Below, piece by piece: positions 1,290 to 7,214 of a DNA stretch of 31,056 nucleotides. The position numbers and the translations under genes are program-made. The notes under the pieces are model-generated. The model saw nothing but the letters and a program-made list of their open reading frames with translations, made no database searches and was not told the DNA's origin. The stretch comes from Escherichia coli. Lineage in GTDB: Bacteria > Pseudomonadota > Gammaproteobacteria > Enterobacterales > Enterobacteriaceae. The DNA is taken from NCBI RefSeq assembly GCF_003334335.1, contig NZ_QOWQ01000047.1. One strand, written 5' to 3'. The stretch's first letter is position 1. Each line of letters begins with the position of its first letter.

Positions 1290-2021
1290 TCACCTGCCAT
1301 CCAGTAGACGCCCCGGCCCACGACTGCAACCATAATTACGTTGCCCGGAACCGTTATGCAACTTCGTTTCATTTTTCACGAGATAACGGGCTCTCTCCAG
1401 GGCTTTCTGCACCGCTTCCTTGTCACCACGCGTGACCCAGAGCACAGCGGATCCACCAGACTTTTTGTCAGAAGCCTTCCGGGTATCAGAACACCCACTT
1501 GGTAAAGGCGTGTCATCGGAAGAAGGGGGAGCAGCAGGTGATGTCGGTTTACGGGAAGGAGTCCACCTGGAAAAATGGACCAGCCCATCACCCAGCCAGG
1601 GCTCAATACGCAGGGCGCTGCACCATGCCTCCTGGATCAGCGTCGCCAGCGAAGAAGAAACGGTGAAATCCCCGAGCGAGCACCAGGTATCTTTGTTGAG
1701 CAGTAATATCACGTGATAATGTTTCCTGCCATACATCTTGCCGAACTCCCGGCACCAGAAATAACCCAGGCTGGTTGCATGCACACGCTGATTGGCACAT
1801 CTTTTTTTCCGCTGGTAAGCCTGAATTTTGGCTTTCAGGGATTCGAAAAAACGAGAAATCACCGCTGAATCCGGATCGGGCTCCATGATGGTGACAGGCA
1901 TATACTCAGGGAAACGTAAATCCACCCGGATTAACGAGACGGCACGGTGTTGCACCAGGGCACTGTTGAGAATACTTTCAAAACGGGATAACCAGTAATC
2001 ATTGTGTATTGGTTGATTCAT
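1290..2021 (-). CDS. YagK/YfjJ-family protein (inovirus Gp2-like, CP4-type island protein), 243 aa. It carries an internal Pro/Ser-rich insertion relative to the ~208-aa K-12 paralogs.
   Basis: The motifs LIRVDLRFPE, VISRFFESLKAKIQ, YFWCREFG, YHVILLLNKD and the C-terminal RYLVKNETKLHNGSGQRNYGCS match the YagK/YfjJ pattern. RBS ggaga lies upstream of the ATG at 2021. Confidence 0.7.
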   Translation of the reverse strand: MNQPIHNDYWLSRFESILNSALVQHRAVSLIRVDLRFPEYMPVTIMEPDPDSAVISRFFESLKAKIQAYQRKKRCANQRVHATSLGYFWCREFGKMYGRKHYHVILLLNKDTWCSLGDFTVSSSLATLIQEAWCSALRIEPWLGDGLVHFSRWTPSRKPTSPAAPPSSDDTPLPSGCSDTRKASDKKSGGSAVLWVTRGDKEAVQKALERARYLVKNETKLHNGSGQRNYGCSRGPGRLLDGR

Positions 2022-2690
2022 GATGAGAGATCTCCGTTGATTTGGATTGACTTCACATCATTAATCGCCGCGGTAAAACTTTACGGCATCCCACCAATGA
2101 GCAACGCCAATAGCTCCTGATTAAAACGGAATGAATCGTCCCGTAACGAAAAGATAATCCTGCACACGACAGCAAAACGTAAAACAACAGCATGAATGAG
2201 CTAAATGTCTAAAGAAAAACTGCCTTTTCACATTATTTTTCAGCGAGTAATCATACCAGCATCCCTAACATACGAAATCGCATCGTGATCGATCGCTGAT
2301 TCGCCGAACAACTGATCGAATACACCGGAATCTGCACTAACATCCTGATGGGTAACGGAAGACTAAAAAACCAGTGTTCTATTGATTGCACGGAATGCCT
2401 GTGCGCTGGCCTGACCAGTAAGCACAATTCTACGAGTAGTAAGATATCTACTCCAAAACCATGCGCAGTAGCCACCATATGTTGCCAGGGTGAAAAATAA
2501 GCTCAGAGCTATAGGGGAGTAATTCCCGTTAATGTCATCGCCGTACCTCAATCAGCTCACAAACTGGCTGAAACGTTAAGCTGAGGCCTTTATTCTTCAG
2601 ATGTATTTTCCGGTTTACCTGTAAATTATCTTCTGATATTTATCACATTAGTAATTGTGCTGATTATCTACATACTTCAAGGTCTGAAAT

Positions 2691-3221
2691 ATGAAGCTAA
2701 CAGAAGAAAGTCTGAATCTAGTCATTGACATCCTGAATGATTTGATCTGTGAAGGAAAAATGCTGAACGATGTGGAGCGCAGATCTCTGCTCAATGCAGT
2801 TATGGCAATTACAGCGGTAAAAGAACGTTCTGTCGTATCTGTATCATCCCGAAAAGAGCAAAGTAAGAAGGAGAAGAAGGAAAGAGAGATCGATCCTCGT
2901 TTCCCAAATGCTGGTGTGGCATGGAATGAGGCAGACGAGAGTTTATTGCGAGATGTTCTGGAGGATGTACCGGACGATGAAATTGGTAAACACCTTTTCT
3001 GGCTGGCAGAGAAACTAGGGCGAACCCCGTACAGTGTAGCCTGTAAAGTCAGACAAATTAAGAAATTACCTGCAGAATGGAAGGATCAATTTCGTAAAAT
3101 CTCTGACAGGATCCGTAGTTCTGGAATGTCAGTCAGTGAATATCTACAACGCCAGGGACTGTTAAGCCCAGAGTCAGGGGAAGAAAACAATCCTGTCAGT
3201 CATAACAACAATGTAGCTTAA
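2691..3221 (+). CDS. Hypothetical 176-aa protein. The N-terminus is helical, the middle is Lys/Glu-rich, and the C-terminal segment resembles a Myb/SANT-like DNA-binding motif (AGVAWNEADESLLRDVL...GKHLFWLAEKLGRTPYSVACKVRQ).
   Basis: Clean ATG-to-stop ORF of about 43% GC. The W-x2-E-E-x2-L...W-x-x-I-A-x-x-L-x-x-R-T-x-x-x-C-x-x-R pattern is typical of Myb/SANT repeats. I do not recognise a named family. Confidence 0.5.
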   Translation: MKLTEESLNLVIDILNDLICEGKMLNDVERRSLLNAVMAITAVKERSVVSVSSRKEQSKKEKKEREIDPRFPNAGVAWNEADESLLRDVLEDVPDDEIGKHLFWLAEKLGRTPYSVACKVRQIKKLPAEWKDQFRKISDRIRSSGMSVSEYLQRQGLLSPESGEENNPVSHNNNVA

Positions 3222-3236
3222 TCCTGAAGAAGATGA

Positions 3237-3272
3237 ACAGTTTATACTCTTTAAACTGTTCCCTTAATTTTA
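3237..3272 (+). terminator. Candidate intrinsic terminator after the 176-aa gene: aacagttta-(tactctt)-taaactgtt followed by cccttaatttt.
   Basis: 9-bp inverted repeat with a 7-nt loop and a T-rich tail 16 nt after the stop codon. The stem is AT-rich, so it is marginal. Confidence 0.3.
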
Positions 3273-3740
3273 GAAAAACAGTTTGTGTAAGTGCATGCTC
3301 CAACATTCTGAAGGCGTTATTTCTTACAATACATCATAATCATTGGCAGATCCTCATCTGAATCAAAACACCACAACCAATCATCACACTTTTTCTGAAA
3401 AGAGCCTTATGATGAAGATAATCACCTTACGCTGAGAAAAAACACCAGGGCCAGTTAATCACCTTATCAATCTCGCCGTTACAAAATCATCCATAAGCCA
3501 TTTAACAGTGTTATCGCAAACTCACAGTAAATCGCATCAGGTTACCTCAATCGGATTTGAGTTAATTCACTGGGCTTTACGTAAAGATACTTTTCTCAAG
3601 CTAACGTCGAAACTCGAAATCTAAGGAAAGGTTAAACGTAACATCAGTAAAATCGAATAGCAGATTGATTGCTTAAACAGAAAGGTTTTACAGCAGCATT
3701 AAACTGATTTAGTTAACGTAAAGATTTACTAAACTGGATG

Positions 3741-3885
3741 TGTATAGCAATGCTTAACGAAAACACTTGTAGAAGTGTTTATGAAAATACGTGTATGTCT
3801 GGTAAAACACTTAGTAGAAAATACGTGTATAACACTTACTGAAATGCTTAGTAAAAATACTTAGTAAAATACGTGTATATAGTAT
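3741..3885. repeat. Cluster of imperfect direct repeats (unit about ACACTTAGTAGAAAATACGTGTAT) plus a perfect 8-4-8 palindrome AAACACTT-GTAG-AAGTGTTT at 3761-3780. The core AAAATACGTGTAT occurs at 3784-3796, 3818-3830 and 3866-3878, spaced 34 and 48 bp apart. It sits inside a 1.16-kb AT-rich noncoding gap between two convergent genes.
   Basis: Read directly from the sequence. No ORF of 60 aa or more occurs on either strand between 3222 and 4384. Confidence 0.6.
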
Positions 3886-4384
3886 CATACCGACATTCTC
3901 AACATCTTCAGACTTCCATACATACTGGGTGTTAATTTTTCACTTTTACAGCCAGCATGGAGTTTTCTGTCCTAAAAACAGAGCAGATTTACTCTGGAGT
4001 TATTTTCCTGTTCACGTATTCAGTACAGCAGAAATCCCGTGATAACGAGACAGTAAACCATCGTAATCAGCGTCTGTAACTCCATCGCTTTACCCCAGAA
4101 AAGTTAAGCCATATAATGTGAGGGATATAAGTCGTCGTATCCGGTAAGTACAGATAACCACAACATAAGCTCATTCAGTAAATTTTATCTCTGAACAAAC
4201 GACTATGGCATGCTCATTTATACTATTCATAAGAAAGTGTGATTATCTGTAAGCATTAACCATCAAATCATATAACCATACTAAACTGGCGGATCATCAG
4301 CACCATTAGCAGGTAACTTATTGAAATTTTATTATGTGTTTTTTGTTGATAATTAATATGCAATATGAATTTGATATTTTAGAA

Positions 4385-5608
4385 TCATGAACACCATTTA
4401 AAATTACCATCATTAATATCATATAAAAATATATTTTTACTAAAACATGAATTGTATATATTTATTAGCTCAGGAAAATTATCAGGGTTCACCTTCAAAT
4501 TAACCTGAATGTTATGCTTAATTTCACCCAGTAGTTCTTCATGTGTGGATTTTATTATCCCATTATTATAATCGATAAATGCACACATGTTTTTTATGAA
4601 TTCAAAACCTTTTCCTGTATACAGTTTAATGAATGCCACCAGAGCAAACATTTCAAGATGTAGCCATAATGCTACGTTAGTTTTTTGCAAAGTATAAAAA
4701 ATTGAATTCGCCACTTTTTTACTTATTGCTCTTTTATACTGTGATCGAGCAAGATTCAGTAGCGGAAGCTCTCGTTCAATAAATGAATGTGAAAAGACTG
4801 GATAAATTGATGTCGGAAACCTTTCAGGCCTTATGATATTTTCTATTTCCACCATAAATCTATCCATAGAAAGAAAGTCACTTTCTTTTTTTATTCTGGT
4901 ATAGAGACCGCCTTTATTCCTTTCTGAGGTTTGTTTTCGTGCTATCCCCCCTAACAATTTCTCTAATTGTTTATTTATCTTCGTATAATTAAATACAACC
5001 ATTCTTCTTATCATCCTCGGAAGGATAATAATATCAGTGCTTGAATCACTTGAACGGCAATTATTATTTATCCATGCAACTTCAAGTTGCAGTATCGGAA
5101 CATTAACTTTTCTGGGGTGAATATCACTCTGATATCGTTTTTTGTATGCGTTTTCATTAAGATATTCTCTGCTGTAGAGAAACTTATAGCAATATAATCT
5201 GATAATATCTTTTATGTAAAATTTAAATAGTTCACCTGTAACAGATATATGTTTTCTGCTCAGTAACTCCTGTGTATTAAGCCATTCCCGTGACCGAAGC
5301 ACACCCTTGTGAAAACTTTTTCTTACTTGCTTTGAGGCACGGCATTGATGTAATATTTTTGCGTCCTCAATAATTCTCTTTCCCGTTTTATTTTTTGCAG
5401 CATCTCTTACTCCATAAAATATCTCCCGGTCCAGACTTTTGTCATATTTACTGATTATACGACAAATATTCCTGACCCGACGATTCTCTTTATTTCGCTT
5501 CCATAGCTTATAATGATCATCGCATAACCTTAAGGCATTTGCCTCATCAAATTCTGAAACAGGATTACTGCATTTTTTATTCCGACAAATACCTTTGTTT
5601 TTAGCCAT
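4385..5608 (-). CDS. Orphan hypothetical protein, 407 aa, very Lys/Arg/Asn/Ile-rich and very AT-rich. The N-terminus has a Cys/His motif (C-x4-C-x17-C-x2-H: CRNKKCSNP...CDDHY) suggestive of a zinc ribbon. No family recognised. It is a candidate accessory, abortive-infection or defense-type cargo gene.
   Basis: Long uninterrupted ORF with an ATG at 5608 and a GA-rich RBS (gggaagaagagt) upstream. GC content is far below the flanking genes, roughly one-third by eye (not computed). It is located in the variable slot of a CP4-like island. Confidence 0.6.
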   Translation of the reverse strand: MAKNKGICRNKKCSNPVSEFDEANALRLCDDHYKLWKRNKENRRVRNICRIISKYDKSLDREIFYGVRDAAKNKTGKRIIEDAKILHQCRASKQVRKSFHKGVLRSREWLNTQELLSRKHISVTGELFKFYIKDIIRLYCYKFLYSREYLNENAYKKRYQSDIHPRKVNVPILQLEVAWINNNCRSSDSSTDIIILPRMIRRMVVFNYTKINKQLEKLLGGIARKQTSERNKGGLYTRIKKESDFLSMDRFMVEIENIIRPERFPTSIYPVFSHSFIERELPLLNLARSQYKRAISKKVANSIFYTLQKTNVALWLHLEMFALVAFIKLYTGKGFEFIKNMCAFIDYNNGIIKSTHEELLGEIKHNIQVNLKVNPDNFPELINIYNSCFSKNIFLYDINDGNFKWCS

Positions 5609-5661
5609 ACTCTTCTTCCCGTCAATGGAAAAATTTTCACACCCATATTACCTGAATGATA

Positions 5662-5684
5662 AACCGGATTAGTGTGATCCGGTT
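5662..5684. promoter_or_regulatory. Palindrome AACCGGAT-(tagtgtg)-ATCCGGTT in the 100-bp divergent intergenic region between the 407-aa orphan gene and the GTPase gene. It is a candidate operator.
   Basis: Perfect 8-bp inverted repeat with a 7-bp spacer, 25 bp upstream of the GTPase ATG. Confidence 0.3.
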
Positions 5685-5708
5685 CAGTGAAATCAACAGG
5701 ATACCGGT

Positions 5709-7214
5709 ATGCCATTCAGCAATTCTTCCCTCTCCGCGCAAGTGAAATCATATCTGACGTTTCTTCCTGAAGAAATACGCCAGAAAATCCTTGAACATCT
5801 CCACGGTGTTATTCATTACGAGCCCGTGATTGGCATTATGGGTAAATCCGGCACCGGCAAGAGCAGCCTGTGTAATGCCATTTTTCAGTCCCGTATCTGC
5901 GCCACGCATCCCCTGAACGGCTGCACCCGCCAGGCTCATCGTCTTACCCTGCAGCTCGGTGAACGCAGAATGACGCTGGTCGATCTGCCCGGCATTGGTG
6001 AAACACCGCAGCATGATCAGGAATACCGAGCGCTTTATCGTCAGTTACTGCCGGAACTGGATCTGATTATCTGGATCCTGCGGAGTGATGAACGTGCGTA
6101 TGCTGCCGATATTGCCATGCATCAGTTTTTACTGAATGAGGGCGCAGATCCCTCGCGCTTTCTGTTTGTTCTCAGCCATGCCGATCGCATGTTTCCTGCT
6201 GAAGAATGGAATGCCACAGAAAAATGCCCGTCCCGTCACCAGGAACTCTCACTGGCGACAGTAACAGCCCGGGTGGCCACCCTGTTCCCTTCATCATTTC
6301 CGGTACTCCCCGTAGCCGCGCCTGCAGGCTGGAACCTTCCAGCGCTGGTGTCACTGATGATCCACGCGCTGCCACCACAGGCAACCAGCGCAGTTTATTC
6401 ACATATCCGGGGGGAAAACCACTCTGAACAGGCCCGGAAACACGCACAACTGACTTTTGGTGAAACCATCGGGAAAAGTTTTGACGACGCCGTTGCCCGT
6501 TTCAGTTTTCCGCCCTGGATGTTACAGCTTCTGCGCAAAACCCGGGACCGCATTATCCACCTGCTGTTCACTGTGGCATCCTTCTCCACCTCCGCCGGTA
6601 ACTGGGCTGTCAAAAACGGCTGGTGCCAGACCATGACGGAAGATGGTCAGGCGCTGGTAATGCTGAAAAATGGCACGATTGGTATTACCGGCCTGATGCA
6701 GGGATGCCCGAATGGCGTACAGACGCTCCTGGGCAGCCGTATCAGTATTAACGGTAACCTGATCCCCACATCACAAATGTGTAATCAGCAGACGGGATTC
6801 AGGGCTGTTGAGGTGGAAGTCGGACAGGCGCCGGAAATGGTCAAAAAAGCCGTTCACTCCATAGCAGAGCGTGATGTGTCCGTTTTACAGGCATTTGGTG
6901 TACGAATGGAATTCACCCGCGGTGATATGCTGAAGGTCTGTCCGAAATTTGTCACATCACTTGCCGGTTTTTCCCCGAAACAGACACCCGCCATTAATAA
7001 AGATTCCGTCCTGCAGGCTGCCCGGCAGGCATACGCCCGGGAATATGACGAGGAAACAACAGAAACCGCTGATTTTGGCTCTTACGAAGTAAAAGGCAAT
7101 AAGGTTGAGTTTGAAGTGTTCAATCCTGAAGACCGTGCGTACGACAAAGTGACCGTCACGGTTGGTGCTGACGGTAATGCCACCGGTGCCAGCGTTGAAT
7201 TTATCGGAAAATAG
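5709..7214 (+). CDS. Island GTPase of the YeeP/YfjP/YkfA family (50S-ribosome-binding GTPase-like; P-loop [16 protein letters not shown]). It continues in frame for about 210 additional C-terminal residues of unknown origin, giving 501 aa versus ~287 aa for the K-12 paralogs.
   Basis: Residues 1 to about 285 align closely with my memory of YfjP/YkfA ([90 protein letters not shown]). The ORF then runs a further ~650 nt with coding-like composition. Confidence 0.8.

Follow-up and report, generated by a model that had tools for sequence, protein, structure and literature searches.

A conserved AT-rich gene divergent from the island GTPase gene

The stretch of DNA analyzed here (the window) comprises 31,056 nucleotides of Escherichia coli contig NZ_QOWQ01000047.1 (assembly GCF_003334335.1) and belongs to a chromosomal island that abuts cadCBA. 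We describe an AT-rich gene of this island, which codes for a 407-amino-acid (aa) protein of a previously unnamed family, and the GTPase gene that lies divergently next to it. The features on which the analysis is based are as follows (positions in the window).

4385 to 5608, minus strand: 407-aa gene, an intact open reading frame (ORF) with an ATG start; type I allele of an unnamed zinc-ribbon/degenerate-HNH family
5513 to 5587, minus strand: N-terminal zinc-ribbon-like motif C8-x4-C13-x15-C29-x2-H32 (residues 8 to 32), from conservation and a structural model
4952 to 5092, minus strand: degenerate HNH beta-beta-alpha core (residues 173 to 219), from hhalign and predicted secondary structure
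4388 to 4906, minus strand: C-terminal helical domain (residues 235 to 407), with LPLF, LE..FA and YNSFFS motifs found family-wide
5709 to 7214, plus strand: island GTPase gene (MMR_HSR1/dynamin-like; Pfam MMR_HSR1, E 1.4e-14), the constant divergent partner
4007 to 5633, approximate: allele-specific cassette of ~1.6 kb exchanged between islands, placed by the homology boundaries on both sides

The RefSeq entry for the 407-aa protein (WP_001107214-like) reads "hypothetical protein." A first-pass annotation, made from the sequence alone, could assign it to no family, and searches of Pfam, NCBIfam, PADLOC and PHROGs bore this out, with zero matches below E 0.1; even at E up to 1, the defense models of PADLOC-DB 2.0 yielded 0 families. 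The gene is present at full length in 968 of the 5,426 complete E. coli genomes, at 1,069 places and in up to four copies per genome. All of these copies are annotated as an intact hypothetical protein, uropathogenic E. coli (UPEC) strain 536 being one of the carriers, and the exact protein sequence was found on at least 1,000 contigs. Furthermore, pairwise ratios of nonsynonymous to synonymous substitution rates (dN/dS) among four E. coli alleles are 0.26 to 0.39, indicating purifying selection, and full-length orthologues exist elsewhere. We conclude that the ORF is no pseudogene fragment but a real gene under selection, and that its functional product represents a family not named before.

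The protein is strongly basic, as had been seen at first sight (isoelectric point 9.76; 74 Lys and Arg versus 42 Asp and Glu). It is also, as first proposed, neither a transposase nor an integrase nor a reverse transcriptase. The label "Reverse transcriptase" carried by a single UniRef entry, the relative P0016, is spurious: an RVT domain was found neither in the window protein nor in P0016, and the hallmarks of such enzymes (RVT_1, YxDD) are missing.

In the best-matching complete genome, L3Cip3, the island also carries pap fimbrial genes. Its CP4-57-like backbone comprises a YfjI-family gene, a YagK/YfjJ gene ("inovirus Gp2 family"), the 407-aa-type gene, the GTPase gene and a WYL/YafY regulator gene, followed by DUF905, DUF932, an antirestriction gene, a RadC/JAB gene, DUF987, CbeA/CbtA and DUF4942. 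The placement of the 407-aa gene in a CP4-like island, between the YagK/YfjJ gene and the GTPase gene, was thus annotated correctly. Compared to L3Cip3, the window has a deletion of ~1.07 kb that removed the GTPase stop codon, the entire WYL/YafY gene and the start of the next gene (225 aa). The GTPase ORF of the window is therefore an in-frame fusion of 501 aa, versus the normal 294 aa (L001 and others). An overlap of 19 bp between the alignment pieces flanking the deletion points to recombination between short repeats.

One diverse family occupies the position opposite the GTPase gene

The 407-aa protein was initially regarded as an orphan. This view has to be abandoned: full-length relatives of 407 to 439 aa with 29 to 37% identity were detected in Citrobacter, Klebsiella, Enterobacter and Salmonella, and distant full-length relatives of 370 to 442 aa in Lelliottia, Klebsiella, E. 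coli, Scandinavium, Kosakonia, Enterobacter, Trabulsiella, Providencia and Moellerella. When 1.84 billion representative proteins were searched exhaustively with a profile, no more than 41 reached E-values of 0.001 or lower. Together with the tiers of relatives, this restricts the family to Enterobacterales; it is absent from K-12. The window protein belongs to clade I, and a second clade is made up of Salmonella members and the type II allele of E. coli (see below). The distant clade III is linked to clade I by hhalign with 99.9% probability (E 7.7e-32, 366 columns). In tblastn searches with the window protein, 50,697 phage records and 72,556 plasmid records gave no match, the single partial plasmid match being that of a clade III member; the family thus seems to be specific to chromosomal islands. 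The searchable literature (queried with accessions, yfjP/yeeP/ykfA and backbone gene names) does not mention it.

In the E. coli islands sampled, the position opposite the GTPase gene is held by proteins of three types, I (407 aa), II (376 aa) and IV (314 to 320 aa), all annotated as "hypothetical protein." Since these types share only 20 to 26% identity by BLASTP (E-values of 0.07 to 4e-5), the slot looks variable, and the first-pass annotation had read it as a site of interchangeable cargo. Profile comparison revealed that the occupants are related: type II matched the family with 99.94% probability (E 2.6e-37, 366 columns) and type IV with 97.4% probability (E 1.3e-11, 229 columns). Type IV is without the zinc ribbon and the YNSFFS end. 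Among the 15 E. coli GTPase loci inspected, type I was present in 8, type II in 4 and type IV in 3, and ~920 GTPase places were assigned neither to type I nor to type II by megablast; in E. coli as a whole, the type II gene occupies 516 places. In each of the 11 E. coli islands sampled, and in five loci of other genera, the slot was held by a member of this one family. Thus, what is exchanged at this position is not a set of unrelated genes, as at a cargo hotspot, but alleles of one family. With three unrelated-looking occupants united in one HNH-derived family (see below), the apparent cargo hotspot becomes a fixed, hypervariable backbone locus.

The constant neighbor is the GTPase gene. Genes at least ~87% identical to that of the window were found at 2,507 places in 1,871 of the 5,426 complete E. 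coli genomes, about a third. In Citrobacter, K. michiganensis, E. hormaechei and Salmonella (two clades), the homologue of the 407-aa gene is divergent from the GTPase gene across 94 to 100 bp and has AlpA and YagK/YfjJ genes on its opposite side. Two clade III members have the GTPase gene directly downstream on the same strand. In this lineage, homologues do recur in the same slot, a point that the first-pass annotation had proposed to check, and the GTPase gene is their constant partner. We conclude that the backbone of CP4-57-like integrative islands includes the family as a fixed component and that, in the lineage of the window, the family gene forms a divergent pair with one GTPase sub-lineage, at the head of the DUF932/antirestriction/RadC/CbeA-CbtA block.

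Comparison of islands with different alleles showed that a cassette of ~1.6 kb is swapped between them, so that very divergent alleles adjoin nearly identical GTPase genes; GTPases with 98.4% identity, for instance, have partners of different types (II and IV). At the far boundary of the cassette, homology between type I and type II islands resumes ~380 to 410 bp past the stop codon of the 407-aa gene.

With a G+C content of 0.325, the 407-aa gene differs strongly from the whole window (0.471) and from the neighboring GTPase gene (0.539). The initial estimate of about one-third G+C was accurate, but the gene is not alone in this: the 1,163-bp spacer at its 3' side (3222 to 4384) is equally low in G+C (0.345), and the low-GC block therefore spans ~3200 to 5700 and is more than the ORF. 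The AT-richness had been taken as a mark of recent foreign cargo. However, the clade I and II orthologues of Citrobacter, Klebsiella, Enterobacter and Salmonella have G+C contents of 0.316 to 0.363 inside loci of 0.44 to 0.51. Since the AT-richness is common to the orthologues of four other genera, it is old, and recent acquisition as its explanation was ruled out. The clade III genes have a G+C content of 0.36 to 0.47, near that of their host loci. AT-richness is a maintained property of clades I and II, with silencing by H-NS as an obvious candidate cause.

As a side observation, type IV islands contain an extra, convergent hypothetical gene of ~270 to 285 aa, which overlaps the end of the family gene by 4 bp (L035, 645 to 1454; L036, 660 to 1448; L038, 582 to 1436) and has no match in Pfam.

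The family is probably derived from HNH nucleases and the catalytic residues are replaced in clade I

The likely ancestry of the family can be read from clade III, whose members share the near-invariant motif LE(L/V)CH.YPNS.GG.N...N.IIAP..INR. At the columns diagnostic of HNH nucleases, the His and both Asn are invariant in this clade. When a 52-column profile of the motif was compared to the PDB, there were eight matches with E-values of up to 10, without exception to HNH nucleases. The best was McrA (6ghc; E 0.12), aligned as YLEVHHVIPLSSGGADTTDN; the others were Cas8f-HNH fusions, "HNH nuclease domain" proteins and a Cas9 (E range of the matches, 0.12 to 1.6). In line with this, 12 motif segments of clade III matched only HNH_4 (7 of 12), HNH_5 (5 of 12) and HNH (1 of 12) in Pfam, with E-values of 0.004 to 0.09 (best, 0.0038) that are below the gathering scores. 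Profiles of whole family sequences found nothing in the PDB, and the window protein itself has no threshold-level HNH match in Pfam. Because nothing but HNH proteins matches the clade III motif, the assignment is credible, although each single score is below threshold and does not prove it. We infer that the ancestor of the family was an HNH nuclease and that one clade keeps the H...N...N signature.

In the clade I protein of the window, hhalign aligned LEVAW..DIIILPRMIRRM with LELCH.YPNS.GG.N...NxIIAP..INR of clade III. The homologous columns of clade I read LEVA(W/F).FN...S..S.D(I/V)..(L/V)P..IR(R/K)M. Accordingly, the window protein has W179 at the column of the catalytic His, D192 at that of the first Asn and R201 at that of the second. 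Throughout the aligned clade I sequences, the His is replaced by Trp or Phe (by Tyr or Lys in a few), the first Asn by Asp and the second Asn by Arg, and the HNH motif is lost in the second clade too.

The predicted structure points to the same core. A second AlphaFold model, built on a 38-sequence alignment (predicted local distance difference test [pLDDT] score, 83.6; predicted template modeling score, 0.71), places strands at 175 to 179 and 193 to 197 and a helix at 198 to 219, exactly over the motif. Thus, the beta-hairpin followed by a helix that characterizes HNH domains is predicted, and W179 ends strand 1, where the general-base His would stand; likewise, D192 and R201 are found in place of the structural Asn and the metal-ligand Asn/His of the helix. 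Since the general-base His and both Asn are lost in this clade, its members probably do not cut DNA by HNH chemistry, and judging from these residues, the window protein very probably no longer performs such chemistry.

The remainder of the model comprises the zinc ribbon (residues 1 to 33; pLDDT of the motif, 83 to 92), long helices (30 to 146), a disordered loop (157 to 166) and the helical C-terminal domain, which is well predicted at residues 235 to 386 (pLDDT mostly 85 to 97). Across the 38 sequences, R293, E319, Y385 and N386 are invariant. No fold match to the model was found in the PDB or BFVD. The N-terminal Cys/Cys/Cys/His motif had been recognized in the first reading, but with a wrong spacing: the second and third Cys are separated by 15 and not 17 residues. 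C8, C13, C29 and H32 are each kept in at least 90% of the 38 family sequences, which cover clades I to III. Four conserved Cys/His ligands in two knuckles correspond to a zinc ribbon, and the protein would be expected to bind zinc; none of the Pfam zinc-ribbon models matches it. In Salmonella members of clade I (L007, 8587 to 9984, P0028; P0064), the ribbon is duplicated, with two C-x4-C...C-x2-H units ~55 residues apart.

In summary, the family has a zinc ribbon at the N terminus, followed by a region of helices, by a beta-beta-alpha core of HNH descent and by a conserved C-terminal domain that is likewise helical. With the HNH superfamily (PF01844, PF13395, PF14279; McrA 6ghc) it shares the clade III motif, which aligns with YLEVHHVIPLSSGGADTTDN of McrA, and the predicted beta-beta-alpha core at the homologous position of the window protein. 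It differs from this superfamily in the Trp, Asp and Arg that the window protein has for His, Asn and Asn, and in the ribbon, the ~110 residues of helices and the unique C-terminal domain of ~170 residues. On the basis of these comparisons, we propose that it is a newly recognized, unnamed and architecturally distinct HNH-derived family. It merits its own profile model for annotation.

The palindrome of the divergent control region follows the GTPase lineage

The 407-aa gene and the GTPase gene are divergent across exactly 100 bp, and this region contains a palindrome, both as first annotated. Its features are the following.

5609 to 5708: divergent control region between the 407-aa gene and the GTPase gene, from alignments
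5645 to 5651: ATATTAC element, 62 to 64 bp upstream of the GTPase ATG
5662 to 5684: palindrome AACCGGAT-n7-ATCCGGTT, 45 to 47 bp upstream of the GTPase ATG, from intergenic comparison

The part adjacent to the 407-aa gene (5609 to 5633) is allele specific, and the part on the GTPase side (5634 to 5708) is common to all types. In E. coli, these 75 bp nearest the GTPase gene are essentially identical whichever type is located opposite. The ATATTAC element is invariant in all 14 intergenic regions compared, which represent five genera. Similar to a -10 hexamer and readable on both strands, it presumably has a promoter role.

The palindrome is essentially identical beside types I, II and IV of E. 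coli, save a shortened arm in some islands. In other genera, its arms differ yet are complementary at the same position (ATCCTGGC/GCCAGGAT in Citrobacter and GCCGGGAA/TTCCCGGC in Salmonella; L002, L007 and L021 regions). The kept position and the compensating changes of the arms between genera indicate that the palindrome goes with the GTPase lineage, perhaps as a hairpin of the 5' leader of the GTPase gene, perhaps as the site of a GTPase-side regulator. A cognate operator would co-vary with the allele of its regulator; no such co-variation was seen in E. coli, and the reading of the palindrome as an allele-specific operator was ruled out.

Proposed role of the 407-aa protein

Our preferred interpretation, to which we assign a probability of roughly 0.55, is that the 407-aa protein, HNH-derived and with its catalytic residues lost, works alongside the island GTPase as a partner that binds nucleic acid and is not catalytic. 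It would act by binding nucleic acid through its zinc ribbon, its basic surface and the dead HNH core, and it may in addition be a specificity or sensor subunit that binds the GTPase. Several observations weigh against this interpretation. The invariant E176, N181 and D192 may support catalysis of a non-HNH type. Not all family members are paired with the GTPase, since the clade III loci L009 to L020 and L028 have no GTPase gene nearby, their family genes being located between AlpA or YfjI (DUF3987) and DUF932. GTPase alleles do not co-vary with the partner type, which gives no support to a specific physical interaction. Moreover, within clade I, selection is purifying and not positive, PADLOC has no defense model for the protein, and all family members are labeled "hypothetical," save the one UniRef entry mentioned above, and carry no functional annotation.

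That the alleles have diverged so deeply while their position is fixed suggests a role of the conflict type, for which defense, counter-defense and discrimination between co-resident islands would be candidates. In an extended form of this idea, which we regard as rather doubtful, the GTPase and its hypervariable HNH-derived partner would constitute an undescribed two-component conflict system with nuclease-competent and nuclease-dead allelic types, exchange of the 1.6-kb cassette, and balancing or arms-race selection. A narrower version, a two-gene defense against phages or other mobile genetic elements in which the GTPase would be the switch or motor and the HNH-family protein the sensor or effector, seems unlikely to us. 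Precedents exist for such a pair, as McrBC combines a GTPase with a nuclease, and the Septu proteins PtuA and PtuB are an ATPase and an HNH protein. By analogy to these, an NTPase gene would stand beside an HNH-family gene on a mobile island with defense and anti-defense genes. The gene adjoins the GTPase gene in five genera and in three allelic types, its alleles are extremely divergent next to a conserved neighbor, which would fit an arms race, and the clade with the HNH signature is twice found directly upstream of the GTPase gene on the same strand. In addition, the equivalent stretch of K-12 CP4-57 holds abpAB and rnlAB, and PADLOC LeoBC weakly matches the GTPase (E 1.1e-4). However, the PADLOC models do not match the 407-aa protein, and the GTPase of the window is MMR_HSR1/dynamin-like and not an AAA+ protein like McrB. 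Types I, II and IV are divergent from the GTPase gene and do not form a single operon with it, and the clade of the window has lost the nuclease residues. Islands normally differ in whether they carry defense cargo, and their cargo genes are not homologous, while the 407-aa gene is a fixed backbone gene. Finally, the GTPase ORF of the window is a deletion fusion, so that the pair may be defective here.

Instead of defense, the protein could serve the life cycle of the island as a DNA-binding or -processing accessory of excision, replication or transfer, the ancestor being a nickase and the alleles avoiding cross-interference. A basic protein with a zinc ribbon would suit this role, and the gene is always found in the neighborhood of AlpA, YfjI (DUF3987) and the Rep-like YagK/YfjJ; in L028, the end of alpA overlaps it and the DUF3987 gene follows. 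With up to six GTPase-type islands and up to four copies of the gene per E. coli genome, specificity between copies could matter. We nevertheless consider this role distinctly unlikely, given that a cognate cis site was not found: the direct repeats in the spacer of the window are absent from other islands, and the palindrome tracks the GTPase lineage and not the allele. Most of the islands also look degraded and immobile, e.g., with an integrase remnant. A basic zinc-ribbon protein encoded divergently to the GTPase-headed backbone operon could, on the other hand, be its transcriptional regulator, acting like an immunity repressor on the shared 100 bp. The short intergenic region with its invariant -10-like element and a palindrome whose complementarity is kept while its arms vary between genera would fit a repressor. 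This role is disfavored and seems improbable, since the 75 bp on the GTPase side are unchanged across types I, II and IV, which share 20 to 26% identity and of which type IV has no zinc ribbon. Furthermore, a length of 407 aa, a core of HNH origin and a large C-terminal domain would be atypical for a repressor, and the operon already codes for a WYL/YafY regulator.

Many islands of this GTPase lineage are pathogenicity islands of extraintestinal pathogenic E. coli, avian pathogenic E. coli and UPEC, strain 536 included. The GTPase and its partner are an unstudied pair that offers a natural allelic series with and without the nuclease residues, and should the pair prove to be a conflict system, it would be of greater interest.

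Island surroundings and the AT-rich spacer

The surroundings of the pair contain three further features.

1290 to 2021, minus strand: YagK/YfjJ backbone gene ("inovirus Gp2 family," Rep-like; Pfam YagK_YfjJ_C, E 5.7e-35)
3352 to 4006: AT-rich noncoding spacer, conserved between islands with different alleles (72 to 94% nucleotide identity among E. coli islands)
2691 to 3221, plus strand: convergent 176-aa ORF (WP_000778605) in a ~1.15-kb insertion (~2199 to 3351) within the conserved spacer

In K-12, the stretch of CP4-57 that corresponds to the slot holds the defense cargo abpAB and rnlAB. The yfjJ-yfjP region of K-12 (abpAB, yfjM, rnlAB) and the window thus agree in island type and relative position, but YfjP and YkfA are only 34 to 36% identical to the window GTPase, and the K-12 cargo consists of unrelated defense genes, whereas the slot next to the GTPase lineage of the window always contains one family. 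In islands of Klebsiella (L003, 13706 to 21204), Enterobacter (L005, 13715 to 21096) and a Logan assembly (L027, 637 to 5955), defense cargo was found farther out; it includes type I restriction-modification, SduA_C, NERD/helicase, GmrSD_N with an AAA_15/21 ATPase, and a DNA methylase. The true cargo hotspots are therefore located beyond AlpA/YagK or beside the integrase and not in the slot of the 407-aa gene.

The spacer between the family gene and the YagK/YfjJ gene is 1.1 to 1.5 kb long (also in L025, 7225 to 8706, and L029, 1712 to 3185). Its segment at 3222 to 4384 in the window contains no ORF longer than 42 aa, and a search of 2000 to 6000 against Rfam gave only a chance match to a small nucleolar RNA (E 0.8). 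Direct repeats are present at 3753 to 3881, with three to four copies of a unit ending in AAAATACGTGTAT within ~130 bp. An origin or iteron function of the AT-rich spacer was ruled out, because the repeated ATACACGTAT units occur only in the version of the window.

The 407-aa gene had been described as convergent with a gene for a Myb-like helix-turn-helix protein across a repeat-bearing gap. The arrangement was confirmed for the 176-aa ORF and the 1,163-bp gap, but the protein label found no support: the best Pfam match of the 176-aa protein is NikA-like (E 0.011), below threshold. The ORF is absent from the islands L024 to L026, which carry the type I gene, and has no match in the loci of other genera. 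Since other type I islands lack it, it is not part of a module with the 407-aa gene. The suggested self-contained module at 2200 to 5700 therefore does not hold, as one of its genes is inconstant and located within an insertion; the constant partner is the GTPase gene. The 176-aa ORF recurs in other islands beside insertion sequence elements (L032, L034 and L037). After its stop codon, a hairpin resembling a bidirectional terminator is located at 3235 to 3261.

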